DNA of 44,343 nt from a virus (taxonomy: Duplodnaviria > Heunggongvirae > Uroviricota > Caudoviricetes), in IMG/VR virus record IMGVR_UViG_3300035698_025354; one strand, written 5' to 3'. Positions 4,474 to 24,197 of this stretch are shown here, piece by piece (the stretch's first letter is position 1; each line of letters begins with the position of its first letter). Made by a program: the position numbers and the translations under genes. Under the pieces are notes generated by a model. It saw only the letters and a program-made list of their open reading frames with translations. It made no database searches and was not told the origin of the DNA.

Positions 4474-4546
4474 GTTGTTAATCCTTGGTTTGGGTCGGAT
4501 AGTTTATATCCAGTTGCGTGATATTTTAAAAAATTTAAGGTCTTAG

Positions 4547-6070: not shown

Positions 6071-6436
6071 TTAAATTATATTATTATCAGCAATTTTTTC
6101 CGAACTATTGGTTAAATATCCAAGATCATTTAAGCGATCTACAATCTTATTTGCAAATTCACGTATACTTTCTGAATTTAAGTCACAATTTATCATATAT
6201 TCATCGCCATCCCATGTAAATAATTCCGAATACATCAACGTGCTTGGCAATGTGTCGTGGACTTTGACAAATCCGCAAAAATCTGTTGAGCTTGGTCCAA
6301 CTTCCATATCGCTAAGATTACACCTAGTGTCTTTAACAAAAACACCACTAAAATTGAAGCGTATTTGTAATTGATCATTGGTTTTTTCTGTGATAATTGT
6401 GCTTATTATGCCCATCACACCTTCAATTATTGTCAT
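6071..6436 (-). CDS. small paralogue, DxxDP family (probable start MTIIEG)
   Basis: CDLNSESIREFANKI. Confidence 0.75.
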   Translation of the reverse strand: MTIIEGVMGIISTIITEKTNDQLQIRFNFSGVFVKDTRCNLSDMEVGPSSTDFCGFVKVHDTLPSTLMYSELFTWDGDEYMINCDLNSESIREFANKIVDRLNDLGYLTNSSEKIADNNII

Positions 6437-6770
6437 CGAATACTTTCTTTGCATATTTAATTATTGTGTTAATACTTTGTGGATCTGATATGTCCACAAA
6501 TATTTTACTGTGTGTCACTGACAAAAGAATGTTACCAAAGAATCCAATTCCCGCGATACAACTAAATTCATTGTCTCTATTATAAATTTTGACATGTTTA
6601 CATGGGTTATGTGCATAGCGTCCTGTTTGTCCACCGCTTATCTGATCATTATATGTTATATAAATAAAGTATCGTGCATAGCATTCTACATGGTATTCTG
6701 GTGATAAAAGTTTTCTTATACCACTAGCGATTATTTTGGTAGATTCTAGTGTGGGATCATATATTGACAT
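6423..6770 (-). CDS. small paralogue, DxxDP family
   Basis: VDISDPQSINTII. Confidence 0.85.
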   Translation of the reverse strand: MSIYDPTLESTKIIASGIRKLLSPEYHVECYARYFIYITYNDQISGGQTGRYAHNPCKHVKIYNRDNEFSCIAGIGFFGNILLSVTHSKIFVDISDPQSINTIIKYAKKVFDDNN

Positions 6771-7089
6771 TATTTTTTAAAAATTCTTTTATGCTAATTA
6801 AGAAATTTGGATCATTGATATCAAATTCTCCGGTTTGTGTTTGCATTGAATCGATATGTTGCAGGGTCAACCATGGGTCATTTTTATTTTGACATATGTT
6901 TATGACAATTCTTATGTTTAAGTATTGGTGTCGAAACACTGTAGTAGTGTCTGATATTTGGTATTCTCCGAAATCCCCAAAGTCATTGGCTAATGTGTTG
7001 CTTATGTGGGTGATCAACACGTTCAGGATTCCATCCAAAGTCACAAGATCTTGATTAAAGTTAATTCTCATGCTTTTTGGCATCTTCAT
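6757..7089 (-). CDS. small paralogue, DxxDP family
   Basis: FDINDPNFLISIKEF. Confidence 0.85.
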   Translation of the reverse strand: MKMPKSMRINFNQDLVTLDGILNVLITHISNTLANDFGDFGEYQISDTTTVFRHQYLNIRIVINICQNKNDPWLTLQHIDSMQTQTGEFDINDPNFLISIKEFLKNNVNI

Positions 7090-7448
7090 TGGTTAGTGTG
7101 TTGCTTATATGGGTGATCAACACGCTCATGGCTCCACCACGGAATCTTAGTAACAAGCGACTTTAATCGTGCTTGTTGTTCGCACTCTTTGATCTTTTTT
7201 AAAAGATTTTGTATTGTTTCAGGTGTATGATATGAGTATTCTTTTCTAATTGATAAGTTAAGATTTTGAATCAAGACACAATCAGTGAAAATATATATCA
7301 TGTAATCCAAATTAGAATTATTGGGTTCACCAATATTTAAGACTATGTAATCCACGAATTCATGTTTTGTTATACGACATGAAATTTCTTCAATATTGCA
7401 AATAAATTCAGCTACTGATAGTTGCAATTTAGTGTAACTATTTTTCAT
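7086..7448 (-). CDS. small paralogue, DxxDP family (diverged)
   Basis: YSYHTPETIQNL; ATGA overlaps. Confidence 0.75.
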   Translation of the reverse strand: MKNSYTKLQLSVAEFICNIEEISCRITKHEFVDYIVLNIGEPNNSNLDYMIYIFTDCVLIQNLNLSIRKEYSYHTPETIQNLLKKIKECEQQARLKSLVTKIPWWSHERVDHPYKQHTNQ

Positions 7449-7714
7449 ATTATCTTATTTTCTGCGAAATAATCATAATCGTCTGGCCTATATTTTAACA
7501 TTCCCTGGTATTTATCGAACCAGAAATTAGCTCTGTCTTGCTGCGATAAGTATAAGATGTTGTTTTGTTTATCGTTTATTGAAGATAGTCGAATGAATGC
7601 TGCCAGATATCCGATGAAGGCACCATTTAGCAGTATTATAATCGCGGATATATTGAAAACTTCGTGTTTAATATAAAGCATTGTTATTTTTACAAAAATG
7701 TCGATTGGGTCCAT
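7445..7714 (-). CDS. hypothetical membrane protein
   Basis: Hydrophobic segment ISAIIILLNGAFIGYLAAFI; AGGGA RBS. Confidence 0.75.
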   Translation of the reverse strand: MDPIDIFVKITMLYIKHEVFNISAIIILLNGAFIGYLAAFIRLSSINDKQNNILYLSQQDRANFWFDKYQGMLKYRPDDYDYFAENKII

Positions 7715-7728
7715 TATGGTTCCCTTTT

Positions 7729-8004
7729 TTAGATTTTTGTTGCAATAATCATATCATTGATTAAATTTTTTAAATCATGTTCTATATTCATATCATAAGT
7801 TTTCAATACATTCCTGAATGGGTATTCTGTATAATCTTCGTATACTAATATCATGTTATTTATGATTTCACAAAACATTATTGGTATGTACACTATTTCG
7901 ATAAATACACATACCAGGAACTCACTTTCTTTTAGTTCTAGTGTATTACTAGATCCGCGTCTTATATATATGTTTTTGGGTAGTGATTCTTGTATTGCTT
8001 GCAA
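7729..8004 (-). CDS. small paralogue, DxxDP family; possibly frameshifted from an ATG at 8041
   Basis: QAIQESLPK resembles RAIESHLPK of its neighbour; YDMNIEHDLKNL. Confidence 0.7.
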   Translation of the reverse strand: MQAIQESLPKNIYIRRGSSNTLELKESEFLVCVFIEIVYIPIMFCEIINNMILVYEDYTEYPFRNVLKTYDMNIEHDLKNLINDMIIATKI

Positions 8005-8037
8005 ATATTTGTGGTGATTTTTTGTTGATGTTCGCCG

Positions 8038-8394
8038 TCATTGTAATTTGTTTAATTTAAGATGCTCTTTTGCGACGATCACTGCCATTTTCTTTATTTT
8101 TTCGACCATTTTTAATAATTGGTCTTGATTGTTTAGGTCATACTTTTCTACGATTTTTATGCCAAGTTTTGCTGCTATGTTCATTCTGGTCAGTAGATTA
8201 TAATGAATTACACATATGTTATCTTTACAGCTAGAAAACGCAAATTGTGTTGATTTTCCAAACACAATTACGGTATATGTTATATTTTTAGTGTTTCGAC
8301 TTATACCGCATTTAACATATTTTGGAAGATGGCTTTCTATGGCTCTTTGGATAAGGTTTTTTTGTGGCGGTGTACGAATAATATTTGAACTCAT
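8038..8394 (-). CDS. small paralogue, DxxDP family
   Basis: YDLNNQDQLLKM. Confidence 0.8.
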   Translation of the reverse strand: MSSNIIRTPPQKNLIQRAIESHLPKYVKCGISRNTKNITYTVIVFGKSTQFAFSSCKDNICVIHYNLLTRMNIAAKLGIKIVEKYDLNNQDQLLKMVEKIKKMAVIVAKEHLKLNKLQ

Positions 8395-8396
8395 TG

Positions 8397-8930
8397 TTAT
8401 TTTCCAGATAAGTTATTGTAAATATAGCTTCCTTTTTCTGCCCCAGCTGTTTCCATTTTTTCTATTAAAAATTCTTGGATTTCTAGTACGGTTGTGTTAT
8501 GTCTTCGTTGGATTATTGATGAGACGACTGTTTCTGGGTTTTTGAGTCTGTAGATAATTCTGGATTTGTCGTCTTCTTTTGGGTTGTCGTTACTGTCTTT
8601 GCTAACGGCTATTCGTTCAAGTAGGTTGTCTATTGTTGCTTCTTTTTGGTGTTGCTCCATTATTTCCCATGTGCCTTTGTTAATTCCGATAATAACGTCA
8701 TGGTCTCTTAGTTCTCTATTTTTATCGGTTGACTTGGTGATTGATGCTACCTTAATATGCCCATCTTGGTCTGGCTTGATATTAAATTGCCACATTAGCA
8801 TGATGTTTACACCGAGGATTCCTTCTTGTCCTGAGTGATACTTTTGTATTAAGCCATTTACTAATGTATAGAGCTGTGGGTTGTCTGTGTTTTCGATTAA
8901 TTCCCAATTTACTGGTTTTGGCTTAGACAT
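8397..8930 (-). CDS. phage putative metallopeptidase-family protein (PhageMetallopep-like) lacking HExxH
   Basis: LIQKYH...W...DQDGHIKVA...RELRDHDVIIGIN..TW...QKEATIDNLLER...DDKSRIIYRL follows the family pattern, but DHELxH is replaced by DNLLER. Confidence 0.6.
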   Translation of the reverse strand: MSKPKPVNWELIENTDNPQLYTLVNGLIQKYHSGQEGILGVNIMLMWQFNIKPDQDGHIKVASITKSTDKNRELRDHDVIIGINKGTWEIMEQHQKEATIDNLLERIAVSKDSNDNPKEDDKSRIIYRLKNPETVVSSIIQRRHNTTVLEIQEFLIEKMETAGAEKGSYIYNNLSGK

Positions 8931-8932
8931 TT

Positions 8933-9286
8933 TTAATCTTTCATAATTAAAGTATATTGTTTTTGTATTGATTTTAATAAATCATTGAATTCAATTTCAT
9001 TATTGATGTCGAATTCAAATGATTTTGGGAGTGATTCTTTTGGGTTTTTCTTTGTAAGTTTATATACGTTGTTGGTTAGTGATCCATATGCTTGTAATGA
9101 TATTAAAGCAGGGATATGTGACTTGTGACAATTGCAATGAACAATATGTGTTTTAATAACATAATACGCATGCCTATCTGCAAATTGTTGTGGTTTATCA
9201 TATTCACGAACAATCATATCATCATATATAGTATTTAAGATCTCAAATAATTTAGGAAATGCGATGCTTAAATTTAAAACTTCCAC
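8933..9286 (-). CDS. small paralogue, DxxDP family
   Basis: FEFDINNEIEFNDL. Confidence 0.75.
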   Translation of the reverse strand: MEVLNLSIAFPKLFEILNTIYDDMIVREYDKPQQFADRHAYYVIKTHIVHCNCHKSHIPALISLQAYGSLTNNVYKLTKKNPKESLPKSFEFDINNEIEFNDLLKSIQKQYTLIMKD

Positions 9287-9309
9287 TTTATTCCTATCAA
9301 AAATTTAAT

Positions 9310-10119
9310 ATGGATCATTATTGTCTTGAAAATAGTATAAAATGTGACGGATATTCGGGGTGTCATGTAGAAATCTTCGAGAATTGTATTATAAAATCTT
9401 CAAGCGATTCACAATATAATTCTAGATTATTGGCACAGTCATTAAAGCAATCATCGCATAAATCAAAATACTTGCTTTCTCCTAAAATACTAGGCAACTA
9501 TTATGTTGATGATATATTAAGAGTTAAAATGGAGTATATTAATGGGGTTAATTTTGCTAGATTATTTGAAATCACTGATATTTATGAATTAGATGATATA
9601 TTTAAGTTATTTATAGATTATATTGTTGATAACTTAAATAAAAGTACGATGGTTAATGTTACAGATGATATTATTTCTAAAATTGATTCTGTTAAAAGAA
9701 ATGTTCCTGATAATGTTAAAGATGTTGTGCCATATGTTTCTGAAGAAATTATTATTCCGGTTGGTGTATGTCATGGTGATTTAACATTGAGCAATACGCT
9801 ATATAATTCTAATGGTATATATGTTTTTGATTTTTTAGATTGTTTTGTTGAATCACCGATACAAGATATTGTAAAATTAAGACAAGACACTTTTCATTAT
9901 TGGTCATTAAAACGATGCGATGGGTTTGATATTTCTAAAATCAAAATAATTTTGAGTCATTTTGATGAGGTCATGGTTAATACTTTTGGTAAGTATGGGT
10001 GGTTTAATTTTTATGAGTTGTTCCAAAAGTTAAACCTTTGTAGGGTTTTGCAATACGCTAAATCTCCAAAAGATATTATGTTTTTGATTGAAGAAATTAA
10101 GAAGGTTGAAAATGGCTGA
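9310..10119 (+). CDS. APH/choline-kinase-like phosphotransferase (glycan-locus type)
   Basis: MEYING hinge, CHGDLTLSN catalytic loop, FDFLD metal-binding motif. Confidence 0.85.
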   Translation: MDHYCLENSIKCDGYSGCHVEIFENCIIKSSSDSQYNSRLLAQSLKQSSHKSKYLLSPKILGNYYVDDILRVKMEYINGVNFARLFEITDIYELDDIFKLFIDYIVDNLNKSTMVNVTDDIISKIDSVKRNVPDNVKDVVPYVSEEIIIPVGVCHGDLTLSNTLYNSNGIYVFDFLDCFVESPIQDIVKLRQDTFHYWSLKRCDGFDISKIKIILSHFDEVMVNTFGKYGWFNFYELFQKLNLCRVLQYAKSPKDIMFLIEEIKKVENG

Positions 10120-11938
10120 TATTTTATTACCGGTAGCTGGTAGTAGTTCTAGATATCCTGGGGTTAAACCAAAATGGTTGTTAACACACCCCCTTGGTGA
10201 TATGATGATCATGAAGGCGATTAGTGGTTTTGACTTAGAAAATGCAGATAGGATTATAGTGACGATGCTCAAAGAGCATGTCTATAAGTTTAATGCTAAA
10301 ATTGGGATCAAGAATGCGTTTAGAAAAGCTGGTCTTTCTAAAAAATTAAAGATCTTAGTTTTAGATGATCAAACAGAGGATCAACCATCTACGATTGCAA
10401 AAACAATAAAGCATTTTAATATAAATGGGCCAATATATATTAAAGATAGTGATAATTACTTTGAATGCGATGTGTTATATGAAAACGGTGTATCAGTTTT
10501 TGACATTGAATCGTTGGATTCAGTGAATGCTGGTAATAAAAGTTATGTTAATGTTAAAAATGGGCTAATAACTAATATTATAGAAAAAAGAGTTATTAGC
10601 CCATTATTTTGCTGTGGTGGGTACGGGTTTAAAAGTGGAAAAGAATTTTTAAAGTATTACGAAGAATCTAAAAAGAATTGTCCGGATAGTGGTCTTTATG
10701 TATCGCATGTTATATGTAAGATGATGTTAGATGGCGAAGAATTTAAAGCTAATAAAGTTGAAAATTATGTTGATTGGGGTACACTTAAGGATTGGGAGAG
10801 ATACTGTAATGAGTTTGGGGCAATTTTTATAGACTTAGATGGAACATTAATTAAAAATTCTGGTAGGTATATTCCACCATATTGGGGTGAGACTAAATCC
10901 ATACAAAATAATGTTGATCTTATAAATTCTCTTTATAATAGCGGTAAAATGAAAATTGTTATAACTACTGCTAGATCTAATGATTTTAAATCAACAACTA
11001 TTGATCAATTAAGCAGACTTGGTGTAAATTATCATGATATAATTTTTGAATTACCGCATGCTAAAAGATATCTTATAAATGATTTCGCCAGATCTAACCC
11101 GTACCCATCAGCAATAGCTATAAATATTAATAGAAATGGTGATATTAGTGAGTACCTTCCAGCGTTAAATAATCAACAACCTAAGATTATTAAACCTAAG
11201 ATCAATAAAAGCCATAAGAGAATTGCTGTTTGCTTAAGTGGTCTTGCAAGAACTTATAAAGATACTGTTAGTAATTTTAAATCTTGTATTACACCAGATG
11301 GTAATGATTATGATGTTTTTATAAATACTTGGAATACTAATGATTCCACTTCTTCCACTGAGTATTCTGTTAGAAATAGGGGTGTTTCTGGCGGATTTAT
11401 TAACCATCAAGACATTGTGTATAATTATAATCCGAGATCTATTGAAATAGAGAAAATGTTTGAATGGGATGATTTTGAAAAATATGACAGGAAGAGATCT
11501 GATACTTTTGTTCCGTCTGTGTTATCTATGTTTTATAAGATCTTGGCCGCCGATAAGATGAGGAGAAAAGTTGAGGATTCTGTCGGGTTTAAATATGACA
11601 TGGTTGTGCGTGCTAGATTTGATACTAAGATGACTAATGTGCTTGATTATGATCTTGGTGATAATGATATTTTAATACCAAAGATGTGGTCTAGCAAGTG
11701 CGTTCAATTTGATAAAAAATGGGTAAATGATACGTTTGCTGTTGGCACTTCGGAAGCGATGGCAATTTATTCTAATTTGTTTGACAGTATTGATTTATTA
11801 TACGACCATGGTTTTCCTTTTCAACCGGAGATTATGTTGTATGGGTGGTTAAAACGATATGATTTAAAAATTGGTATTATTGATTCATATCCACAAATAT
11901 TAAGACTTAATGGTGATTTAAGCAAGGTCCCTGAATGA
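10112..11938 (+). CDS. three-domain fusion: sugar-phosphate nucleotidyltransferase-like + HAD hydrolase + capsular-biosynthesis/glycosyltransferase-like domain
   Basis: LPVAGSSSRY..KPK and DWGT; FIDLDGT, ITTAR, INDF; IAVCLSGLAR, DVFINTW, SMFYKI, YDMVVRARFD, NDTFAVG. Confidence 0.8.
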   Translation: MADILLPVAGSSSRYPGVKPKWLLTHPLGDMMIMKAISGFDLENADRIIVTMLKEHVYKFNAKIGIKNAFRKAGLSKKLKILVLDDQTEDQPSTIAKTIKHFNINGPIYIKDSDNYFECDVLYENGVSVFDIESLDSVNAGNKSYVNVKNGLITNIIEKRVISPLFCCGGYGFKSGKEFLKYYEESKKNCPDSGLYVSHVICKMMLDGEEFKANKVENYVDWGTLKDWERYCNEFGAIFIDLDGTLIKNSGRYIPPYWGETKSIQNNVDLINSLYNSGKMKIVITTARSNDFKSTTIDQLSRLGVNYHDIIFELPHAKRYLINDFARSNPYPSAIAININRNGDISEYLPALNNQQPKIIKPKINKSHKRIAVCLSGLARTYKDTVSNFKSCITPDGNDYDVFINTWNTNDSTSSTEYSVRNRGVSGGFINHQDIVYNYNPRSIEIEKMFEWDDFEKYDRKRSDTFVPSVLSMFYKILAADKMRRKVEDSVGFKYDMVVRARFDTKMTNVLDYDLGDNDILIPKMWSSKCVQFDKKWVNDTFAVGTSEAMAIYSNLFDSIDLLYDHGFPFQPEIMLYGWLKRYDLKIGIIDSYPQILRLNGDLSKVPE

Positions 11939-12603
11939 CAACAGTTCGCTTAAAAAATTCTGTGTTTATGCATGTTCCTAAAACTGGTTGCACTACTGCC
12001 ACTTTAGCATTTCATAAAACAAAATCAATAACATATGATTATAGGTATAAACTATGCCCTGGCGATGATGTTGAGTACGATGAGAATTGTAAAATGTATG
12101 TTGAGGAAAATCCAATACCTCATCCACCAGATTCTATGCCACATGCTAATATATGCGAATTGAGAGATTGTGATAGGGATTTACAAAAAATAATAATAGT
12201 TAGAAATCCTCTTGATTGGTATGTGTCGTATTGGTTGCATCATAAAAGATTTGATTGGAGTACGGAAATTAATCCGCCATATTTAGAAAAAGGCGGTGAT
12301 AGAAAATTTTCATATTGGATTGAAAACATGAGTGAGCATTCTGACAAAATAGGTCATGGTTTTTTTACGAGATATGTTGGGGATTGGGTAGACAATAAAA
12401 CACATTTTGTTAGGCTTGAAAATATTGTCGAAGATATGCGATTTGTTTTACGATTATGTGGGGAAAACGAAGAATCGGCTGATCATATGGAAAGTAAGTG
12501 TAATGCTAGAGTGAGTTCTAGAAAATTTGAAATACCAGATTATATTAAGCACGATATCAGGCACTTTGATTCTAAAATATTTGGATTGTATCATGGGTTT
12601 TAA
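11935..12603 (+). CDS. sulfotransferase-family protein
   Basis: FMHVPKTGCTT (5'-PSB loop), VRNPLDWYVS (3'-PB motif), RLE. Confidence 0.8.
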   Translation: MTTVRLKNSVFMHVPKTGCTTATLAFHKTKSITYDYRYKLCPGDDVEYDENCKMYVEENPIPHPPDSMPHANICELRDCDRDLQKIIIVRNPLDWYVSYWLHHKRFDWSTEINPPYLEKGGDRKFSYWIENMSEHSDKIGHGFFTRYVGDWVDNKTHFVRLENIVEDMRFVLRLCGENEESADHMESKCNARVSSRKFEIPDYIKHDIRHFDSKIFGLYHGF

Positions 12604-14174
12604 AACGGTAGGAACACACGTGTTGAATATAATTTTGACGCCACTTTCCTATACCCATCATCTAAAAATGTATTATTGACAGAAGTAACATTAAATTGCG
12701 TGTAGCCACGATGCAAAAGACGATACTGTAGGGCGTCTTGTTCTAAATTTTCAATACAAAACCTTCGCGATTCTTCGTCAATATTCTCATATAATTTTAA
12801 TAATTTTTCATTGAGCATTGATATGGTGTCAGAGCATCCTTCCCATGTTCCACCAAATAAAACGTGGGAGTCTGTGCTACGTCCAATCATTGATTTTGTG
12901 GTTGTAAGGTCTTGAATTTTAAGATTATCACCGTCTTCTTTTAGCCAATATTGTGCTACTTCTTGACCGAATTTTGCTGTTAATAATTTATCTAAGACCT
13001 CTATGTCTTTTGGGTTTGTTGATTTCAGGTTAAGAGCGTTATTTGGTTTCACGAATATTGCAATATCAATGTCAGATTCTGGGATACTATATCCTTTTAA
13101 TTTTGATCCAAACATGATAGATACTGGTAGTATTAATTGGGACAATCTTCTACTGTTGATTATTTTTTGGATCTTTTGTCTTTCTTTATTGATGTGATTT
13201 AAATTTGGTGATTCACTTAGATCTGGATTAAAAATCCCGGCATCATTTAATGTTTTTTGATCTGCAATATTGATACTGTGTAATCTGCAGAATGTTCTTG
13301 ATATGTATTGTGATTGGTGCAATTCTTGGGTATGGGTGTTGTCGTTTTTTGCGAGTTCTAAAAGATGCGGTTTACATCTTTCGTATAGGGCGATTGCTAA
13401 ATCTTTGTCGATCATGTTTAATCGTTCTATTGCCGAACCAATACCTGAAATTGCCACTAGGATTGAGTTTCCTTTTAGTGTTTTAATAAATTCAGCTAAT
13501 GATGTTGTGTTGTGGCTTCCGGCAATTAATATTGTACTTAGACTTTTTCCAAGTTTGTTTATTGTTTGCCTTTTATCTTCCCATCTTAACCAGTTTGCTC
13601 TTTTTTTATTTTTAATATATTTATAACTTGGTAAGTTATCTAATGCGTATGTGATTGAATCGTGTATTGTTTTCTTTGTTGTTAAGTGATTTGTGTTTGG
13701 ATAAGCTTCGTTGACGTTTTTAAAGGCGTCTTTTAATGAATCGGATAACAGTGATGGTGCATTATCTTGTAAATTTGATAGCAACGCTTTAGAAATTAAT
13801 CCGTTTTCAAGTAACGTTGGAGCTAGGTATGCTGCTTGTATAATCCTGTCTTTTGATTCTGTATCTCCATTTGTAAAGTTAGTGCGAACGTCTGATGTTT
13901 GTAATAATCTATACCAGCATTCGATATATGATTCATAGAATGTGTCAATTATTTCGTTGTGATTTCTGTACCATGATGACTTTGGTATTAAGTATAATGG
14001 ACAATATAGTATGAATCTGTCATTTGCCCCAGAACTTAGTAATTTATTTAATGATTTATATAATTCTGTGCGGTCTTCGATGGTTTGGTTTGGTGATGAT
14101 TCTTCAATTAGCTGTTTTAATTGTTTACGGTGTTCGTTGACTGTTGATCCTATCGGTGAAAATGTATTGATCAT
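12600..14174 (-). CDS. large helical protein with C-terminal Pol-beta-superfamily nucleotidyltransferase domain
   Basis: FGSKLKGYSIPESDIDIAIFV (hG[GS]x9-13DhD); start taken as MINTF (GTG at 14216 is an alternative). Confidence 0.8.
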   Translation of the reverse strand: MINTFSPIGSTVNEHRKQLKQLIEESSPNQTIEDRTELYKSLNKLLSSGANDRFILYCPLYLIPKSSWYRNHNEIIDTFYESYIECWYRLLQTSDVRTNFTNGDTESKDRIIQAAYLAPTLLENGLISKALLSNLQDNAPSLLSDSLKDAFKNVNEAYPNTNHLTTKKTIHDSITYALDNLPSYKYIKNKKRANWLRWEDKRQTINKLGKSLSTILIAGSHNTTSLAEFIKTLKGNSILVAISGIGSAIERLNMIDKDLAIALYERCKPHLLELAKNDNTHTQELHQSQYISRTFCRLHSINIADQKTLNDAGIFNPDLSESPNLNHINKERQKIQKIINSRRLSQLILPVSIMFGSKLKGYSIPESDIDIAIFVKPNNALNLKSTNPKDIEVLDKLLTAKFGQEVAQYWLKEDGDNLKIQDLTTTKSMIGRSTDSHVLFGGTWEGCSDTISMLNEKLLKLYENIDEESRRFCIENLEQDALQYRLLHRGYTQFNVTSVNNTFLDDGYRKVASKLYSTRVFLPF

Positions 14175-14201
14175 TATTTTAATTGTTTCTATTTTTATAT
14201 T

Positions 14202-14241
14202 ACAATTCCTCCCCACTGAATAAGCGGTGGGGAGGAATTGT
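14202..14241. terminator. strong GC-rich hairpin (terminator or processing/stability element)
   Basis: ACAATTCCTCCCCAC...GTGGGGAGGAATTGT, 15-bp perfect arms; no clear U-tract on the minus strand. Confidence 0.55.
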
Positions 14242-14459
14242 TAATTTAAACTCCAAAAACTAAAATTCTTTTTAAATTTACCATCTATCGATTTTTGAAT
14301 AACATTCGTAAAGTAGAGGATCTTAGGAATTCTTCGTTTTTTCTAAGCATTCTAATGCCGGACCTTCCCTTTTTCCTTTCTTTCTCAATCCTTCTTCTCC
14401 AATAATCACCTTTATCAATCCCGGTATCGGTGGGTTCTTTAGGCAATTCTTCATCTTGA

Positions 14460-15710
14460 TTAGTCGGATAAAGCTTTTCGTCTGTTTCCAATTCCTGCTG
14501 GTCTTGTGGTTCCGCCTGGAAACATGGCAATCCGTTTGAGATCCTCCCATGGGATTTGTGCACCAAGCATAAACAGAGTTCCGAAGTATTGCAGTTCTTC
14601 ATTCCCAGCTGCAACATTTTCTGTTTGCATAATACCAAGGACAAATTTGGTTAGATTTGTTTCCATTCTTGGGTATGTTGCTGGGACAGCAACATTGAGT
14701 TTCTTAAGCAGCAATTCTCTGGTTGGAATTCCGCAAAGTGATGGTAATCTTGGATTATCGATCATCGATTTGATTTGATTGGCTTCAAATGCTAGTGCTG
14801 AAGTAATTTGAACACCAGTACCACGAAATGTTTTGTTCAACGCATCATTTACTGATTCTGCTGCATCGCGAAGAACACCACAATCTGGTGATTGCATCAT
14901 TCCTGGTGGCATTCCGGCTCCACCGCCACCACCAGCTAAGGATGCCACAGCAGCCATCATCATTGCTGGGTTTGCTGTTCCTTGCATCCATGCTTCTTGC
15001 CATGATGCTAATGCTTCATTAAAAGACAGAATTGCTGGCCACAAGCATTCGTTGATGCGTTTTAATAATTCATCTTTACGTTTTTCTGTAACGAAGCTTC
15101 CATCAAGCCCTTCGATTGCTTGAAACAGATCGCCATATGATTTTCTTGTCAGTTGTTTTCTGATTTTCCAAAATTCATCACCGACTTGTTCTTCGGTAAC
15201 TTCAATAAAATCTTCCATTGATGAAACGAGCTTTTTTGGAATATCATATAATCCAAAACAATCCGCAAGTGCAACTCGAATAGCTGCAATCACAGTGGCT
15301 TGTTCGACTTTTAGAACACCACCAGCACGTAATGAATTTAGCCATGATGCATCGTCTGGGACACTTGGCAGCATCGCATCAATATTCATTGAATTTGCTG
15401 TGATCGGTGCGTTGATCCCATAACTACTTAGATCCGGTGCTTCTTTTAAAGCTAAAACAAGTTTTCTTGCTTTAATTACTGGGATTCCAATGCTTGTAAG
15501 GTCTGATTCTTTCAAGCTTGATAAATCGCTAACGCTTTCCACTCCCAATTTCTTAATTTCGGCGATCTGGGTGTCGTCAACAATTCCCAATTCTTTTAAT
15601 TTTGTTACAATTGGGTCGGTGGTATCGAAATTCCCTGATTTTGGCGTTTCTACCTTTGGCGTTTCCACCTTTGGCGTTTCCGGTGTTTCTGGTGTTTCTT
15701 TATCTGTCAT
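14460..15710 (-). CDS. uncharacterised 416-aa protein: ETPK repeats, SAM/HhH-like N-terminal domain, helical body with Gly/Met-rich segment
   Basis: LKELGI...LGVESVSDLSSLKESDLTSIGIPVIKARKLV; MMMAAVASLAGGGGGAGMPPGMM; overlaps the upstream PurA-like stop. Confidence 0.85.
   Translation of the reverse strand: MTDKETPETPETPKVETPKVETPKSGNFDTTDPIVTKLKELGIVDDTQIAEIKKLGVESVSDLSSLKESDLTSIGIPVIKARKLVLALKEAPDLSSYGINAPITANSMNIDAMLPSVPDDASWLNSLRAGGVLKVEQATVIAAIRVALADCFGLYDIPKKLVSSMEDFIEVTEEQVGDEFWKIRKQLTRKSYGDLFQAIEGLDGSFVTEKRKDELLKRINECLWPAILSFNEALASWQEAWMQGTANPAMMMAAVASLAGGGGGAGMPPGMMQSPDCGVLRDAAESVNDALNKTFRGTGVQITSALAFEANQIKSMIDNPRLPSLCGIPTRELLLKKLNVAVPATYPRMETNLTKFVLGIMQTENVAAGNEELQYFGTLFMLGAQIPWEDLKRIAMFPGGTTRPAGIGNRRKALSD
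15640..15698. repeat. intragenic 15-bp and 9-bp repeats encoding ETPETPETPKVETPKVETPK
   Basis: TTTGGCGTTTCYACC units from 15640. Confidence 0.75.
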
Positions 15711-17076
15711 TCTTTCGATCCTCGTAAAAAATTTTGTCTCTATCGGTTGGCCCGAATGAGAGCAAATGAATTGGAATCCCCAACTTGTCTCGCATTATGC
15801 GATCACATAATCGACATTGTTCTTCGATCGAGTTGGGTAAATCGATTGAAGAAATCACAGCCTTACACTCTAATAATGATGAACAAAGCTTAGTTTGATA
15901 TTTATTACAATGTTCATCGGGTGTCTTAATAGTATTTCCAGATTTAAAATACTCTCTATCATATTTATAATACTTATCGCATATTTCCCATGTTCTATTT
16001 TGTGAGATCTGATCAAACCAAGTAATAGCCAATCCATCTATTGAATTGGGACCACCACAAACATCAACAGCATATTTTAATAAAACAAAATCTAATGGCC
16101 CAACTCTGATTTTACCTTGATATCTATTTTCATCCTTACGACTACCGGGGAATAAGTTGTTATTCATTGTTGGATCAGCAGTAGGCATCGGACCGGCTCC
16201 ATGCCTAACAGTATAGGCACGATGCACCCCTAATTTCACGATATTACCGGCAAATCCATTTCTTATTAGCATATCATGAGAGAAAGATGGTAATGTTCTA
16301 ATAGCACTCGTATGCGGTTGGAATCCATATTTATTATCAGTTAATATTCCATGCGAACTTTCAACTATTGCGACACCATCTTTTTGTAATATTGTAGATA
16401 TATGCTTATCGTCGACAATATTTAATAATTTACCGGCTTCTTTAAACCTATCCGCATTATGATTCAAAAACTCACCATCTTTTAATAATGACAGTTCTTG
16501 ATCAAGAATCGCTTTGTCATCATTTAAAAATTCGCTTTTTTCAATTATGTTTTCTATTTTAGAAATTTGTGCGTCACGAATTTTTGATAATTTTTTATAT
16601 GTATTCTTCTGAAGTTCACCAGCCGTGATTGATTCATGATCTTTATCACGAAATGCCTCACCGACTCCTGTCCCTATTGTTCCTCTTGGATTTGTTCCTC
16701 TTGATATTTCTTTTATTCTTGATACAATGCCGTGGTATGGTGTTGAGCAAATTGTATCTCTGTCAATTGTTAGTAAGTCAAATGCATTTGTTAAACCATG
16801 GTATCTGAGTGCGTCTGCTTCGTTTAATAAACCTTCTGGACTTGCAACCATTAGGGGTGTAATATGTGTTTTTACGCCCTCGAATGTTCCACACCCCCAT
16901 TGGCTAAATGAAAATTCATGCTTTTTTGTTGAAACTCCGTGGCTTCCTTGGGCTCCACCAACTTTGATTATAGTGTGGGCATGATGGTGGCAAGACAGCT
17001 TGTGGATTACGCTGCCTTTGCCACCATCACCGGGACCTAAGTCGAACACAATTATAATTTTATTTTCTTGCAACAT
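15700..17076 (-). CDS. divergent adenylosuccinate synthetase-like (PurA-fold) ligase
   Basis: GPGDGGKG, GGAQGSH, GTIGTGVG, ESSHGILTD, AYTVRHGAGPMPT, RVGPLD, ITWFD, SFGP align with the PurA motifs. Confidence 0.9.
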   Translation of the reverse strand: MLQENKIIIVFDLGPGDGGKGSVIHKLSCHHHAHTIIKVGGAQGSHGVSTKKHEFSFSQWGCGTFEGVKTHITPLMVASPEGLLNEADALRYHGLTNAFDLLTIDRDTICSTPYHGIVSRIKEISRGTNPRGTIGTGVGEAFRDKDHESITAGELQKNTYKKLSKIRDAQISKIENIIEKSEFLNDDKAILDQELSLLKDGEFLNHNADRFKEAGKLLNIVDDKHISTILQKDGVAIVESSHGILTDNKYGFQPHTSAIRTLPSFSHDMLIRNGFAGNIVKLGVHRAYTVRHGAGPMPTADPTMNNNLFPGSRKDENRYQGKIRVGPLDFVLLKYAVDVCGGPNSIDGLAITWFDQISQNRTWEICDKYYKYDREYFKSGNTIKTPDEHCNKYQTKLCSSLLECKAVISSIDLPNSIEEQCRLCDRIMRDKLGIPIHLLSFGPTDRDKIFYEDRKNDR

Positions 17077-17110
17077 TTTGATTTCCTTATATTATAATGT
17101 TGCAAGAAAA
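17063..17110 (-). promoter_or_regulatory. hairpin pairing the start codon of the PurA-like gene, RBS in the loop
   Basis: 15-bp perfect inverted repeat TTTTCTTGCAACATT/AATGTTGCAAGAAAA; mRNA loop AUAAUAUAAGGAAAUCAA. Confidence 0.6.
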
Positions 17111-17120
17111 AAATTATTTG

Positions 17121-18248
17121 TTAAAGCCAATCATCGGTTTCTTCTGGTGCTTGCTCATTATCAGCTGTTTCCATAGCATTGCTTACTGGCCATAGGTACT
17201 TATCTTCCCAAACATCTGGCTTACCTTCAAAAACATCTCCCTTTTTAGGAATTTTGGAGAAGTTTGGTAGCTGCATTTGTGCACCAATTGGGATATTTGC
17301 CAATGATTCAGAAACTGTCTCAGCATCTTTTTTCTTCATATTGAGTTGTTGAAGAAATTCAACAGTGTCATTTAAAGTCAGGGTCCCTTCGGTTAGACCA
17401 ATGATAGCAGCTTGAACGCATGGTAAATGTTTTGTATTTGGAAGTGATATTACACGTTCACTTCCAACATGTTCTGACCAAAAATGTTTTGTGTCTCTGC
17501 TGTGTCCGACAAGAAGCACAAATGCATGTGCTCTGTCTAATAGTGCACTCCAAACATCTTTAAGTTGAATTGGACCACGTTGGCTTATTTGGTGGCCATT
17601 TTCAGAGGCTTTATCAAAGGCTTTATCACCAAAGACTCTTTTGACAACCTCTGGATCAATAATGCCGCGTCCAGGTGCGTCTGTTACTGTAAAATCGTAT
17701 CCTTTAAGACCGATCCTATTAATGTAATGTCTGCAAAGATATGCCCCGCCAAAGATCCCTAAATCTGGATCTTCTGGATTATCGCCACCGCCGTGTTCGG
17801 GTACCATTAATGTTAATTGCTTTACAATTTTTAAGGCATCCATTTCAAATTGTGGACGGCAAAGAACAAAATTGTCTTTAACATCACCAAAGATTCCTGT
17901 GGCGACTTGAATATCATAGCCATCTAAAACTTTAGACCATGATTCAAATGCGTCTGGTAAAACGTCCATAGCGACGTCAACATTGTTACCCATGCTTCCT
18001 GTTGTGTCAACGCGTGTTTCAATTGGCATCGGTGTCCCAACTAGCATTTCCCATGTGTCATCTTCCTTTTTTTCGACGCGTGGTAATGATAATCTTGTCG
18101 TTCCGAACCCTGCTGGGTCTACAAGCGGTTCCAGTTTTCCAGTTTCAATTGCTTTCTGTTCAGCACGCTTTGTCACATGGGTAGAACTAACAGACGCTGT
18201 TGATTTTGCTGCTGTATATAAAGATCGTGTAAAAACTTCTCGTCCCAT
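17121..18248 (-). CDS. von Willebrand factor A (MIDAS) domain protein
   Basis: VDTTGSMG (DxT/SxS), GIFGD, GGGDNPED, FTVTDA. Confidence 0.85.
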   Translation of the reverse strand: MGREVFTRSLYTAAKSTASVSSTHVTKRAEQKAIETGKLEPLVDPAGFGTTRLSLPRVEKKEDDTWEMLVGTPMPIETRVDTTGSMGNNVDVAMDVLPDAFESWSKVLDGYDIQVATGIFGDVKDNFVLCRPQFEMDALKIVKQLTLMVPEHGGGDNPEDPDLGIFGGAYLCRHYINRIGLKGYDFTVTDAPGRGIIDPEVVKRVFGDKAFDKASENGHQISQRGPIQLKDVWSALLDRAHAFVLLVGHSRDTKHFWSEHVGSERVISLPNTKHLPCVQAAIIGLTEGTLTLNDTVEFLQQLNMKKKDAETVSESLANIPIGAQMQLPNFSKIPKKGDVFEGKPDVWEDKYLWPVSNAMETADNEQAPEETDDWL

Positions 18249-18260
18249 TATAAGATTCCT

Positions 18261-19064
18261 TTATTTTTTAATAGTAGTAAATTCATGAAATCCTTTTTCC
18301 CACGAGGAAAAAGGATTTTCACAAAGGTCATCGACAATCGTATAGAGTAATTTATGTGCTTTACTTGCGTCAGTGTTTCCAGTATTTGCTAATGATTTTA
18401 AATAATTCACGTATGGTGATTCAATAGTGTCATGATGATATGAAAGACCGCCCAGAGCTTTTATTACACATTTTGCGGCTAACTTAACTTCTTTTCGTCG
18501 AGTTGATGCTGAAACTTCTTCTGAACATATTAACGATTTTGACCAATTAAATACGATCACATAGTGCAAATCTGGCTCAATTAAAATATTGTTTCCAGAA
18601 ATATCATTGACTTCAATTCTATTATCATGGGCAAATGATATTGTTTTTAATAATTTTCCCATGATCCAAGCACTGGTTTTTAGATCTATTCGTAGCGAGT
18701 CTTTCCAGATTTTAATCAATGGCACAACTGATCCAATATTTTTAACATTTCTAAATCCTAAAATATTGGCGTGTCTTACTCCTTGATTTGTTAAGACGAT
18801 TTCATCGTGTAATTTGGGGAATCCGAGATGATAATTAAATGACGCATCTGGGTGTTCTTCATGAATTTTATCAGACGCCTGGGCTAATTTGTTTATAATC
18901 CAAGCATTTCGCGATATGCTGCTACTATCTAATTGCTCAGATGCTACTTGCATCAACAATTCATGACCATTCTTGTCAGTACAAGTCCATATGCGATATT
19001 GTTTGTTTTGTGCAACTATTTTGTTAAACACATACTTATTATTATCGTTATTAAATTCCATCAT
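18261..19064 (-). CDS. protein-kinase-fold protein, probable pseudokinase
   Basis: WIMGKLLKTISFAHDNRIEVNDISGNNILI..HYVIVFNW matches subdomains VIa-VII; beta3 Lys reads Q (LLMQV); DFG reads NWS. Confidence 0.75.
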   Translation of the reverse strand: MMEFNNDNNKYVFNKIVAQNKQYRIWTCTDKNGHELLMQVASEQLDSSSISRNAWIINKLAQASDKIHEEHPDASFNYHLGFPKLHDEIVLTNQGVRHANILGFRNVKNIGSVVPLIKIWKDSLRIDLKTSAWIMGKLLKTISFAHDNRIEVNDISGNNILIEPDLHYVIVFNWSKSLICSEEVSASTRRKEVKLAAKCVIKALGGLSYHHDTIESPYVNYLKSLANTGNTDASKAHKLLYTIVDDLCENPFSSWEKGFHEFTTIKK

Positions 19065-23796: not shown

Positions 23797-24197
23797 TTGA
23801 AATCATAGTGAAAAATTTTGCTAAAGAATTACAACCATACGCAACCGCACATCCAATAAACAACAAAGTATTGCACGACTGCAATGCTTATCTTTTGGTT
23901 ATTAAAGCATGGTCGTCAAGTACAACGATGATTCAAATAGGGTTTCATCAACATGATGATCACACAATCACTCTTACTCGCACCGGTAAAATTAACGGTA
24001 ATTATTTAGGGTGGGGCAAAATGCTATTAACATTAAAACTAGCTAATGTATACCATGGCGGTATTGATGTTCGTCGACCAGATTCCATAGAAATGATACG
24101 TAAATACATAATGAATTCGATGGAGACAATCGATGATGAAATTGAAGATCAAAAACACAAATTCCCAAAAAAGAAACGTTCTTCTAATAATAACTGA
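23793..24197 (+). CDS. DxxDP family-like paralogue
   Basis: MIEIIVKNFAKEL helix; IDVRRPDSIEMIRKYI. Confidence 0.7.
   Translation: MIEIIVKNFAKELQPYATAHPINNKVLHDCNAYLLVIKAWSSSTTMIQIGFHQHDDHTITLTRTGKINGNYLGWGKMLLTLKLANVYHGGIDVRRPDSIEMIRKYIMNSMETIDDEIEDQKHKFPKKKRSSNNN

Follow-up and report, generated by a model that had tools for sequence, protein, structure and literature searches.

The window analysed here, a 44,343-nt stretch of viral DNA, contains five co-oriented genes encoding a pseudokinase, a vWA protein, a PurA-like enzyme, a SAM/(HhH)2-helical protein and a Pol-beta nucleotidyltransferase (NTase) (Table 1). The first four genes are separated by a 12-bp gap, a 44-bp gap and an 11-bp overlap between the genes for the PurA-like enzyme and the SAM-helical protein, and a 285-bp spacer precedes the NTase gene. 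GC content is 0.36-0.39 over 14-19 kb, against 0.30-0.34 in both flanks. This layout, including a hairpin in the spacer, had been described in an earlier note made from the sequence alone, and was confirmed in full by ORF, GC and RNA folding analyses. The note had also reported the absence of purB, and no Lyase_1 (purB) match was detected with Pfam among all six window ORFs of at least 400 aa. A HAD/PNK-like gene (616 aa) directly adjoins the cluster, and the window also encodes ThyX and a dUTPase.

Table 1. Genes and predicted RNA hairpins of the locus.
Feature	Position	Strand	Product
Pseudokinase gene	18261-19064	-	267 aa
vWA gene	17121-18248	-	375 aa
Hairpin, vWA/PurA-like intergenic leader	17063-17110	-	
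PurA-like gene	15700-17076	-	458 aa
SAM-helical gene	14460-15710	-	416 aa
Hairpin, spacer upstream of NTase gene	14204-14241	-	
Pol-beta NTase gene	12600-14216 from GTG; 12600-14174 from likely ATG	-	538 aa from GTG

The spacer hairpin has a 15-bp stem (dG -26.7 kcal/mol, z -7.5), lacks a U-tract and was not called in a consensus terminator scan; it could serve as a terminator, a processing site or a regulator. Since the GTG at 14216 lies inside this hairpin, the likely NTase start is the ATG at 14174, which yields the 285-bp gap given in the earlier note. The leader hairpin (dG -17.4 kcal/mol, z -6.0; 0 of 200 shuffles fold equally well) pairs the AUG of the PurA-like gene (17076), with a GGA sitting in its loop.

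The PurA-like enzyme

The PurA-like protein can be aligned to PurA over its full length and matches Pfam PF00709 (Adenylsucc_synt) with 129 bits, but scores only 100 bits against the NCBIfam purA model, for which the equivalog cut-off is 402. The catalytic and GTP residues D17, K20, H46, D355 and S440 are retained, and a second set of residues (Q43, I134, H242, H292, Q320 and W353) is altered yet invariant in the family. At three of the four positions that bind the IMP 5'-phosphate, and at those that bind aspartate, other family-invariant residues have been swapped in; we take these roles from E. coli PurA. In the phylogenetic tree, where PurZ is represented by one sequence (phiVC8), the family forms a clade apart from both PurA and PurZ (SH-aLRT 100), and the phiVC8 protein groups with canonical PurA. 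On sequence grounds, the enzyme hence represents a third clade, distinct from both PurA and PurZ, with a signature comprising Q43, C/V/I134, H292, Q320 and H/C/W353 plus the retained D17, K20, H46 and D355.

The full-length alignment and the retention of the catalytic and GTP residues would be compatible with an ordinary auxiliary metabolic gene, encoding a divergent but working adenylosuccinate synthetase that boosts AMP synthesis next to unrelated neighbours, and the family is labelled adenylosuccinate synthase in databases. We regard this as the least probable explanation, given the score well short of the equivalog cut-off, the rebuilt aspartate and IMP-phosphate sites, the obligatory co-inheritance with four partner genes and the existence of fusions to partners. 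Canonical PurA is also present in two of the five CPR genomes carrying the module, and no Lyase_1 protein (PurB-type lyase) was found in four of these five genomes. These results uphold the earlier view that the enzyme is not a housekeeping PurA, and it does not group with canonical PurA.

The best PHROG for the protein, phrog_1211, is annotated as PurZ family. Together with the phage context and the ThyX and dUTPase genes, this would suit replacement of a DNA base as carried out by PurZ (2-aminoadenine), or another route by which purines of the phage genome are modified before replication, a reading that we consider very improbable. The hallmark of PurZ is a Ser at the D13 position (bioRxiv 10.1101/2025.10.22.683976), a change that the PurA-like enzyme lacks, and the guanine-type D355 is retained where PurZ has N. 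The position of the phiVC8 protein in the tree also argues against it, and no relative of DatZ, MazZ or DpoZ was detected among the roughly 30 scanned of the 87 window ORFs of at least 100 aa. Furthermore, in CPR bacteria the module is found on the chromosome, beside NrtR/NAD genes, and Z-DNA is not known from the Bixzunaviruses.

Partner proteins and their possible association

The kinase-fold protein matches phrog_3043 ('kinase', 1.9e-11), and its family profile matches the catalytic loop of CK2-alpha (2.7e-6). In the window copy the beta3 Lys is replaced by Q and the DFG motif by FNW, and neither the HRD Asp nor the beta3 Lys is conserved across the family. The earlier note had named this protein a pseudokinase, and judging from these residues the catalytic degeneracy extends to the whole family. 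HPD-bearing N-termini (J-domain) are found on the Rhodococcus and Pleione pseudokinases; the window protein has no J-domain, and one phage locus (L005) encodes a stand-alone DnaJ after the NTase.

Family searches with the vWA protein returned zero sequence-family matches, but its AlphaFold2 model (pLDDT 88, pTM 0.89) matched integrin beta-I and vWF-A3 domains in Foldseek (E 1e-6 to 5e-5, probability 1.0). The MIDAS motif D81-x-T83-x-S85 is intact, with D81, T83 and S85 invariant in the family, and the protein ends in an acidic tail with WL as its last residues. Remote homology links it to phrog_2971, a neighbour of PurA-like genes in phages, and hhalign aligned it to the plasmid copies with 99% probability.

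The SAM-helical protein comprises a low-complexity N-terminus, a SAM/(HhH)2 domain (residues 28-97) and an all-helical orphan domain of about 300 aa. Residues 28-97 align with SAM domains (VIA-align Z 7.4) and with the XPF (HhH)2 domain (Z 6.8), and Pfam HHH_5 was detected on one homologue. Fold comparison gave no match for residues 105-416; this C-terminal domain shows 56-75% identity across 316 homologues, in none of which a Pfam domain covers it. The NTase consists of a helical N-terminal region of about 350 aa, the NTase core and a helical C-terminal region. It presents the Pol-beta motif (G370-S371, D382 and D384, numbered from GTG 14216), matches Pfam Polbeta (1.1e-5) and NTP_transf_2 (1.5e-3), and 14 of 25 family members match Polbeta. 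A PDB profile search identified HI0073 and GLD-2, and the best match is to MntA-type minimal NTases.

Two natural fusions, each known from a single protein cluster, link partners of the module: P0244 joins the PurA-like enzyme to the SAM-helical protein (hhalign probability 100, E 1e-101), and P0283 joins the pseudokinase to the vWA protein (99.6%). A weak interface between the vWA protein and the enzyme was also predicted, with an ipSAE of 0.56 (best control 0.10), runs sharing at least 82% of contacts and a partner pLDDT of at least 83. Among solved complexes the pass mark admits 58 of 80, and among mismatched pairs 2 of 110; the passing cases with ipSAE up to 0.60 comprise only 7 of the 80 solved complexes plus both mismatches. 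The two fusions and the predicted interface suggest that these proteins form a complex, and the 11-bp overlap of the enzyme and SAM-helical genes is a further sign of coupling between these two partners.

Distribution and genomic neighbourhood

All five genes lie side by side, in identical order, in about 80 of 86 related loci, a count of phylogenetically related and hence non-independent cases, mainly on CPR/Patescibacteria chromosomes and in a few huge phages, which are the closest relatives of the window. The pseudokinase occupies the equivalent position in 78-84 loci. Recurrence of one gene order in about 80 loci puts the arrangement far beyond chance, and the module's five families are the only ones conserved around the enzyme. 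The comparison of neighbourhoods across phages and bacteria thus supports the earlier proposal that the genes form one unit. Membership of the NTase, on which the note was less certain, is borne out by 82 loci in which it adjoins the module, pointing towards the other genes in CPR bacteria (convergent) and running in their direction in the phage clade, and we propose that it is a fifth, separately regulated component of the CPR/huge-phage version only.

A core trio of pseudokinase, MIDAS vWA and PurA-like genes is present in about 200 cultured Bixzunavirus mycobacteriophages (Pleione gp265-gp268), in Vibrio phage Va1 and on plasmids of A. vitis (Agrobacterium; pAtS4e) and Rhodococcus (pLPS8), matching the bacterial neighbourhoods mentioned in the note. 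The trio-only versions lack the (HhH)2/SAM protein and the NTase. We found no paper describing the module, which is widely conserved yet uncharacterised, the window holding a phage-borne copy.

The nearly equal fit of the SAM-helical N-terminal domain to XPF (HhH)2, and the HHH_5 match on one homologue, would accommodate a role in nucleic-acid repair or modification. The enzyme would then act on a 6-oxopurine within RNA or DNA, re-aminating or substituting it, the (HhH)2 domain would attach to the polymer, and ends would be healed by the NTase together with PNK-like neighbours. The HAD/PNK-like gene of the window and a polynucleotide kinase three genes upstream of the Pleione module point the same way, and a nucleotide embedded in a polymer would be in keeping with the rebuilt 5'-phosphate ligands. 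PNK adjacency, however, occurs in two lineages only, the trio-only versions do without the (HhH)2/SAM protein and the NTase, and no ligase, RtcB, Hen1 or nuclease is conserved near the module. This scenario also leaves the enrichment in NAD genes described below unexplained, save loosely via ADP-ribose by-products of RNA repair, and appears improbable.

We surveyed 77 non-redundant loci with Pfam, taking the 263 genes nearest in their flanks; the most frequent families were NUDIX (13, seven with an NrtR winged-helix domain), ADP_ribosyl_GH (6) and Isochorismatase (4), followed by LSDAT SLOG (3), NAD_synthase (2) and AAA_28 (2). Bacterial neighbourhoods are enriched in NrtR-type NUDIX, ADP-ribosylglycohydrolase, PncA, NadE, Sir2 and NAPRTase genes, a link that does not feature in the earlier note. 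The module lies between nadA and nadE in one locus (L003), is flanked by Sir2, ARH and NAPRTase in another (L025), and in two genomes adjoins a single-copy ADP-ribosylglycohydrolase gene. NrtR was the best NCBIfam match for NUDIX neighbours in CPR, A. vitis and, weakly (24.6 bits), Rhodococcus, and from this adjacency we infer NrtR control of the module. NUDIX genes are numerous in CPR genomes (9-16 per genome), and part of their enrichment could be background. In phages, the NAD link was seen only in L005, which has NAMPT and an NrtR-matching NUDIX neighbour without the winged-helix part, and L006; NAD genes are absent from the flanks of L087 and L088 and from the 44 kb visible in the window.

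The module is rare and patchy, being carried by three of 400 other sampled Patescibacteria genomes, a distribution as compatible with an accessory or conflict role as with a metabolic role. Pairs of vWA and kinase-fold proteins, as well as minimal NTases, are common in conflict systems. In a defence or counter-defence module, the vWA/pseudokinase pair would sense infection or stress, and the PurA-like enzyme and NTase would make or modify a nucleotide signal or a toxic nucleotide. Its presence on plasmids and in phages and the MntA-type affinity of the NTase agree with this, as does a published DarT-like ART family that co-occurs with AdSS-domain, NUDIX and AAA genes (PMC12522546). Nevertheless, neither the module nor its immediate surroundings contain a recognisable effector (nuclease, pore, NADase or protease), the genes that recur beside it serve NAD salvage and regulation, not defence, and most core-trio lineages lack the NTase. 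We therefore consider a conflict role unlikely.

Proposed function of the module

The reading that we tentatively favour, with a probability of about 0.4, is that the module encodes a nucleotide ligase complex, driven by GTP and linked to NAD/ADP-ribose turnover, with which phages sustain their nucleotide pools. The third-clade PurA-fold ligase would be the catalytic part of a multi-protein enzyme system, with the SAM/(HhH)2-helical protein as a tightly coupled subunit. Since the P-loop, the catalytic Asp/His pair and the guanine-specific Asp are retained, GTP use most likely persists; the ligase would most likely phosphorylate an oxygen of its nucleotide substrate with GTP, and a nitrogen nucleophile would then displace the phosphate. 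The replacement of the IMP-phosphate and aspartate ligands indicates that the acceptor is probably not plain IMP; it may be bulkier and joined through its diphosphate, and the nitrogen donor is probably other than an aspartate bound as in PurA.

From the NrtR-type, ADP-ribose-responsive NAD-salvage neighbourhood we infer that its cellular job is probably the recycling or re-amination of a purine nucleotide released in NAD/ADP-ribose turnover; during infection, the phage copies would serve to maintain usable pools of adenine nucleotides or NAD. Because it lies among NAD/ADP-ribose recycling genes in bacteria, the module is probably the sign of a step in nucleotide or NAD metabolism that has yet to be described.

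The earlier parallel with the TerY vWA-phosphatase-kinase triad does not hold, since the module has a dead kinase and lacks a phosphatase. Instead, this kinase, which in other lineages bears a J-domain, would team up with the MIDAS vWA protein as an adaptor or regulator pair that binds the enzyme, by analogy with the vWA adaptors of MoxR-type activases.

Organization and distribution of the five-gene module

Calling of open reading frames in the window returned the spacings that the earlier note had given for the cluster, with gaps of 12 bp and 44 bp between the first three genes and an 11-bp overlap of the genes for the PurA-like enzyme and the 416-aa SAM-helical protein. The 285-bp spacer that had been reported ahead of the nucleotidyltransferase (NTase) gene was likewise recovered, with the start of this gene placed at ATG 14174. 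The upstream GTG at position 14216 is enclosed by a hairpin with a 15-bp stem (dG -26.7 kcal/mol, z -7.5), and the NTase start is therefore probably ATG 14174. Another hairpin (dG -17.4 kcal/mol, z -6.0) lies between the vWA and PurA-like genes, where the AUG of the PurA-like gene is base-paired and GGA is left in the loop; as judged from the sequence, this structure is a possible translational gate on the PurA-like enzyme. The G+C content is 0.36-0.39 over 14-19 kb, against 0.30-0.34 on both sides.

Coordinates of the module genes and of other features in the window and in related loci
Sequence	Feature	Coordinates	Strand	Product
Window	kinase-fold gene	18261-19064	minus	267 aa
Window	vWA gene	17121-18248	minus	375 aa
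Window	PurA-like gene	15700-17076	minus	458 aa
Window	SAM-helical gene	14460-15710	minus	416 aa
Window	NTase gene	12600-14216	minus	538 aa, counted from GTG
Window	hairpin between vWA and PurA-like genes	17063-17110	minus	
Window	hairpin enclosing the NTase GTG	14204-14241		
Window	three genes convergent with the NTase gene	9259-12603	plus	
Window	auxiliary enzyme block	24133-36017		
L088 (phage-like locus)	MoxR-type AAA cassette	1028-4358		
L156 (A. vitis pAtS4e)	MoxR-type AAA cassette	8470-15092		
L156 (A. vitis pAtS4e)	10-bp inverted repeat	4967-4993		
L090 (224-kb IMG/VR contig)	dispersed trio	115-9215		

The rest of the window is occupied by a long series of small open reading frames, and no tRNA genes were found in it. 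Its auxiliary enzyme block encodes a sulfatase, a dUTPase, ThyX, a radical-SAM protein, three glycosyltransferases and a GDP-fucose-synthase-like epimerase, an unusual cargo that suggests a large phage modifying glycans or nucleotides. The window covers 44 kb of an 85-kb contig and has, overall, the appearance of a large phage or another mobile element, and not of a cell. The three plus-strand genes run towards the NTase gene and meet it in an overlap at 12600-12603. Their products are a small kinase of the APH/Bud32 type, a protein of 616 aa that resembles HAD proteins and polynucleotide kinases (phrog_415, phrog_13607) and a sulfotransferase-like protein. A polynucleotide kinase is likewise encoded three genes upstream of the module in Pleione, a Bixzunavirus (Bxz1/cluster C1) mycobacteriophage.

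More than 900 homologues of the PurA-like protein were identified at 50-63% identity. A pattern scan of prokaryotes, using one genome per species, located the protein in 468 genomes, with the best-matching 80 loci belonging mostly, by their record titles, to CPR bacteria (Patescibacteria). Of the loci from a viral scan, three were close and about 60 distant. In an analysis of 149 loci, all five genes were present in one order in about 80 of the 86 close loci, and all-against-all clustering identified only these five families as conserved around the enzyme. Co-occurrence of the five genes, proposed in the earlier note from the window, thus extends to other genomes, and the NTase, whose membership had been considered less certain, belongs to the conserved order. 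The NTase gene is convergent in CPR chromosomes and co-oriented in the window and in its nearest, phage-like relatives L005/L006, L087 and L088, the last of which is part of a 408-kb IMG/VR record rated complete and containing a terminase.

The module is rare: of 400 other Patescibacteria genomes sampled, only 3 were positive with a profile of the vWA protein, whose family is represented 781 times in 1.84 billion proteins. No match was returned by megablast when the cluster was searched in its entirety against 50,697 phage records, nor by tblastn when the window vWA protein was searched against phages. The connection of the window vWA protein to phrog_2971 came from the loci and from profile comparisons. 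The distant phage loci encode a vWA relative of about 300 aa (phrog_2971) directly upstream of a shorter PurA-like gene, and tblastn searches with the phrog_2971-type vWA-like protein matched 219 phage records, 200 of them from Bixzunavirus Mycobacterium phages. In Pleione, the order is gp265 ('serine/threonine kinase'), gp266 (hypothetical), a small ORF and gp268 ('PurA-like adenylosuccinate synthetase'), and the window's PurA-like protein is 29% identical to the Bixzunavirus enzymes across 98% of its length.

The core trio of pseudokinase, vWA and PurA-like genes was also identified on two plasmids, pAtS4e of A. vitis S4 and pLPS8 of Rhodococcus opacus, with profile-comparison probabilities of 99% and 99% for the vWA proteins and of 98% and 90% for the kinase-like proteins. 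On the IMG/VR contig L090, which carries a PurA-like gene 30% identical to that of the window, the trio is dispersed, with the vWA-like gene about 2 kb and the kinase-like gene about 7 kb upstream of the PurA-like gene, an intermediate form. MoxR-type AAA cassettes were observed near the module in two unrelated carriers, encoding AAA and DUF2201 metallopeptidase-vWA proteins in the 408-kb phage and AAA, DUF5682 and DUF4132 proteins on pAtS4e; their presence may be a coincidence or may denote a second vWA-linked system. No publications on this module were found in the literature searched.

Module proteins and their association

The 267-aa protein matched phrog_3043 (1.9e-11), and its family profile matched the catalytic loop of CK2-alpha (2.7e-6). 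Alignment of 24 kinase-fold family members revealed that the beta3 Lys position is occupied by Q in 15 of them and the HRD-Asp column by N, Q, L or a gap, while the DFG Asp is kept in 15 members and gives way to N in the protein of the window. HGA is found in Pleione gp265. The initial designation of this protein as a pseudokinase is hence upheld, and its degeneracy is common to the whole family.

For the 375-aa vWA protein, no sequence-family match was obtained, including to the Pfam vWA model, and a PDB profile search with the family returned no match at E values up to 10. Its AlphaFold2 model, built with 24 homologues (pLDDT 88, pTM 0.89), matched integrin beta-I and von Willebrand A domains with a Foldseek probability of 1.0, and the MIDAS residues D81-T-T83-G-S85 (DxSxS-type) are invariant in 24 vWA sequences. 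In its predicted structure, the protein thus presents a vWA fold with a MIDAS motif.

In the 416-aa protein, residues 28-97 define a SAM/(HhH)2 helical domain (VIA-align Z 7.4 and 6.8). This was the only part of the protein matched in the wide VIA-align search, and Foldseek returned no PDB match at E 0.001 or better. The all-helical domain of about 300 residues that comes after it yielded no fold or family match, nor any usable match in the ESM Atlas; it is the best-conserved part of the module, with 56-75% identity in 316 homologues, all of which lack a Pfam domain in the C-terminal part. A PurB-like lyase was considered for this protein, in view of delta-crystallin rows in Foldseek and of its occurrence, as it is found where PurB is missing, and missing where the host has PurB. 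The fold was dropped, the delta-crystallin rows presenting probabilities of 0.02-0.03 and a TM of 0.10; a lyase-like function would be a candidate only.

The last protein of the module matched Polbeta/NTP_transf_2 in Pfam and HI0073 and GLD-2 in the PDB, and its G370-S371 (hG[GS]) and D382/D384 (DxD) residues are invariant in 25 sequences. It contains a minimal NTase core of the Pol-beta superfamily, preceded by some 350 residues of helical N-terminal sequence for which no informative neighbour was found in the Atlas. That the module as a whole, this NTase included, constitutes a nucleic-acid repair or modification system is in our estimation quite unlikely.

A physical association of the module proteins is suggested by the 11-bp overlap of the genes for the enzyme and the 416-aa protein, and by two natural fusions, each represented by a single protein cluster. 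One (P0244; 859 aa, from an ENA contig of 6243 nt) joins the PurA-like enzyme to the SAM-helical protein, and the other (P0283; 679 aa) joins the pseudokinase to the vWA protein. Co-folding of the enzyme with the vWA protein resulted in an ipSAE of 0.56, against 0.10 for the best control, a range that is oftener wrong than right unless the pairing is already likely. At least 82% of contacts agreed between runs, with a partner pLDDT of at least 83, and these models lend weak support to an enzyme/vWA complex. An HPD motif was detected in the N-terminal extension of the Rhodococcus and Pleione pseudokinases, and a stand-alone DnaJ gene is located just after the NTase gene in L005; the window has neither an HPD extension on its pseudokinase nor a DnaJ gene after the NTase gene. 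Taken together, the HPD extensions, the L005 DnaJ gene, the gene overlap, the fusions and the co-fold point to a putative arrangement in which a vWA adaptor and a dead kinase that recruits a chaperone would act on the enzyme.

A third PurA-fold clade in an NAD/ADP-ribose neighbourhood

The 458-aa protein presents the PurA fold along its full length (Pfam, 129 bits), and it misses the curated purA equivalog cut-offs (NF002223, 100.4 bits against 402; TIGR00184, 89.8 against 395.6). Its residues were compared with those of solved PurA structures, the canonical PurAs of two CPR genomes, phiVC8 PurZ and 35 relatives. The catalytic and GTP-binding residues D17, K20, H46, D355 and S440 are kept, being invariant or nearly so; they correspond in E. 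coli PurA to Asp13 and Lys16 of the P-loop, His41, Asp333 and Ser414. The aspartate and IMP 5'-phosphate ligands in the E. coli enzyme are Asn38, Thr129, Arg143, Val273, Thr301 and Arg303. In the pocket, N38 is replaced by Q43, T129 by C/V/I134 (I134 in the window), V273 by H292 and T301 by Q320. The equivalent of R143 is not conserved in this clade, R303 is replaced by K322 in the window and is variable elsewhere, and K331 is replaced by H/C/W353 (W353 in the window). The window's own family also shows a change of Q224 to H242. Other than at the variable positions, these substitutions are shared by CPR, phage and plasmid copies, and the canonical PurAs of the two CPR genomes retain N/T/V/T/R at the altered positions.

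In a quick maximum-likelihood tree, the branch details of which are provisional, all 37 PurA-like proteins, drawn from vWA-linked and other phage loci, split from two canonical PurAs and phiVC8 PurZ with an SH-aLRT of 100. At the level of sequence, the grouping with canonical PurA by which the proposal of the earlier note would have been refuted is hence not seen, given this split and scores far below the equivalog cut-offs. The window enzyme groups with those of L087, L088 and L005 (SH-aLRT 99), and this group is nested in the CPR family (100), beside a Peribacteria sequence. These relationships suggest gene exchange between phages and CPR bacteria, and hint at a CPR host. Two of the five module-carrying CPR genomes also encode a canonical PurA, which scores 379-408 bits versus 92-121 bits for the PurA-like copy. 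A fumarase/PurB-superfamily (Lyase_1) protein was identified in only one of the five genomes, and none was detected among window ORFs of 400 aa or more.

A Pfam survey of the two nearest genes on each side of the module, covering 263 genes in 77 non-redundant loci, yielded as its most frequent families 13 NUDIX proteins (7 with the NrtR winged-helix domain), 6 ADP-ribosylglycohydrolases, 4 PncA-like isochorismatases, 3 prokaryotic SLOG/LSDAT proteins, 2 NAD synthases and 2 NadR-like AAA_28 proteins. Carrier genomes harbour 9-16 NUDIX genes each, and only the NrtR-type copies therefore weigh much. Two carrier genomes contain a single copy of the ADP-ribosylglycohydrolase gene, which adjoins the module in both. 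In the Paceibacterota locus L003, the module lies between nadB-nadA and nadE-nadK-NMNAT-NAPRTase; another locus (L025) has Sir2, ADP-ribosylglycohydrolase and NAPRTase as flanks, and a third presents a PRPP synthetase gene near the module.

The NUDIX neighbours in CPR loci and in A. vitis have NrtR, a repressor responsive to ADP-ribose, as their best match (model NF050029; 158 and 136 bits). The A. vitis NrtR-like gene is divergent from the module operon, and the 110-bp spacer between them contains a 10-bp inverted repeat, GACTTAGACG-N7-CGCCTAAGTC, which by its sequence is a candidate operator. In Rhodococcus, a NUDIX gene with the same best match, here weak (24.6 bits), is located 8 nt downstream, and the phage locus L005 encodes NAMPT and a NUDIX-only NrtR relative (54 bits) devoid of the winged-helix part. 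Going by this adjacency, the module may be under NrtR control. In the window, tblastn searches with 12 NAD-pathway queries from the loci and with six other neighbour-gene queries detected no NAD genes and no NrtR, and the NAMPT, Prs and NadR queries found no match; the flanks of L087 and L088 contain no NAD genes either. These absences count against the link to NAD/ADP-ribose genes. A DarT-like ADP-ribosyltransferase family has been described to co-occur with AdSS-domain, NUDIX and AAA genes (PMC12522546).

We propose, with a probability of roughly 0.4, that the module is a multi-protein enzyme system tied to NAD/ADP-ribose turnover and used by phages for their nucleotide pools. The PurA-like protein would be a ligase of the PurA fold that depends on GTP and in which the pockets for the acceptor and for the nitrogen donor have been re-specified, and the SAM-helical protein would be a tightly coupled subunit of this enzyme. 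The vWA protein and the pseudokinase would operate as an adaptor pair, and the NTase, in the window's version of the module, would be separately controlled. Through its functional link to NAD/ADP-ribose turnover, the system would allow phages to keep nucleotide pools usable. A more specific and rather doubtful version of this proposal is that the third-clade enzyme, with its vWA/pseudokinase adaptor and SAM-helical subunit, might draw on GTP to regenerate NAD, a related adenine dinucleotide or a nucleotide derived from ADP-ribose, starting directly from what its breakdown or deamination leaves, a reaction without a described enzyme. It would then represent a third route of NAD/adenylate reconstitution, common to CPR bacteria, actinomycetes, rhizobia and more than 200 phages, switched on by the ADP-ribose sensor NrtR in cells and employed by phages against NAD- or ATP-destroying defences.

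To our knowledge, PurA and PurZ are the sole described activities of the PurA fold. With its conserved set of partners, a third clade would extend this list by a new reaction of nucleotides; its carriers range from ultra-small CPR bacteria and soil actinomycetes to plasmids of rhizobia and hundreds of phages. Furthermore, the repeated position of the clade next to NrtR and NAD-salvage genes suggests that a step of NAD or adenylate homeostasis has gone unrecognised, and this homeostasis is central to present phage-defence research. The presence of the core trio in about 200 cultured Mycobacterium smegmatis phages and in cultured Rhodococcus and Agrobacterium strains makes the question directly testable by genetics and biochemistry.

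Comparison with known systems

The enzyme has its fold in common with PurA (EC 6.3.4.4; E. coli 1ADE, Legionella 6BS7) over the full length, and preserves the P-loop GDxGKG, the catalytic Asp/His pair, the guanine-binding Asp and the C-terminal SxGP, at an identity of just 24-29%. Unlike PurA, it is always encoded with a vWA protein and usually with a pseudokinase, and it presents no coupling to PurB. A plain PurA, with which the fold and catalytic residues would agree and the scores, pocket and gene partners would not, is a highly improbable reading.

PurZ, the 2-aminoadenylosuccinate synthetase of Z-genome phages (phiVC8, S-2L), is also a phage-borne PurA-fold paralogue of altered specificity, with phrog_1211 in common. 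A Ser at the D13 position (S14) defines PurZ (10.1101/2025.10.22.683976). The window enzyme keeps D17 at this position, and phiVC8 PurZ presents S, F and N (F and N being ATP-type) in columns where this clade has D, W/H/C and D. In addition, phiVC8 PurZ falls on the canonical-PurA side of the tree, apart from this clade, and none of the PurZ partners DatZ (HD), MazZ and DpoZ was detected among the approximately 30 window proteins scanned or among the conserved neighbours of the 86 loci. Replacement of a DNA base in the manner of PurZ is very unlikely to be the function of the module.

The gp265-gp268 genes of Bixzunavirus constitute a homologous trio in identical order. Its enzyme bears the Q, H, Q signature of the clade, and its kinase, too, is devoid of the HRD Asp. 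This version differs in the absence of the SAM-helical protein and the NTase, in an N-terminal HPD (J-like) extension on the pseudokinase and in the shorter phrog_2971 form of the vWA protein. The Bixzunavirus trio names a relative of the window module, and not a function.

Pairs of MoxR AAA+ and vWA proteins, such as CbbQ-CbbO, NorQ-NorD and RavA-ViaA, operate as adaptor and activase. By analogy, the module would likewise place a MIDAS vWA gene beside a presumed docking-target enzyme and a remodelling or chaperone-recruiting partner, and it is from this resemblance that an adaptor function may be assigned to the vWA protein. The module differs from these pairs in lacking a MoxR ATPase, the partner being a dead kinase that bears a J-domain in some lineages.

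The pairing of a vWA protein with a kinase fold is common to the module and the TerY-P triad, which comprises the vWA protein TerY, a PP2C phosphatase and a Ser/Thr kinase. In contrast to TerY-P, the module has a catalytically degenerate kinase and, as its third partner, a PurA-fold enzyme; no PP2C phosphatase was found in the genes next to the module in the window or in the families conserved in the flanks. A conflict-signalling module is a reading that we deem unlikely.

For the proposed link to NAD/ADP-ribose turnover, the closest points of comparison are the NrtR regulons, reportedly treated by Rodionov in 2008, and the phage NAD-reconstitution pathways, which are said to have been described by Osterman in 2024 and to consist of Adps and Namat in NARP1 and of NAMPT and NMNAT in NARP2. 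Unlike NARP1 and NARP2, the module shows no homology to Adps, Namat, NAMPT or NMNAT, and comparison of its five proteins with the PRPP-synthetase, NAMPT and NMNAT families yielded no match. It shares with these systems a genomic setting, in that cellular copies adjoin NrtR-type NUDIX and NAD salvage genes and one related phage carries NAMPT and a NUDIX gene at the module. With the NARP pathways it would also share a chemical logic, in which a phosphoryl group activates the substrate and a nitrogen nucleophile then attacks.
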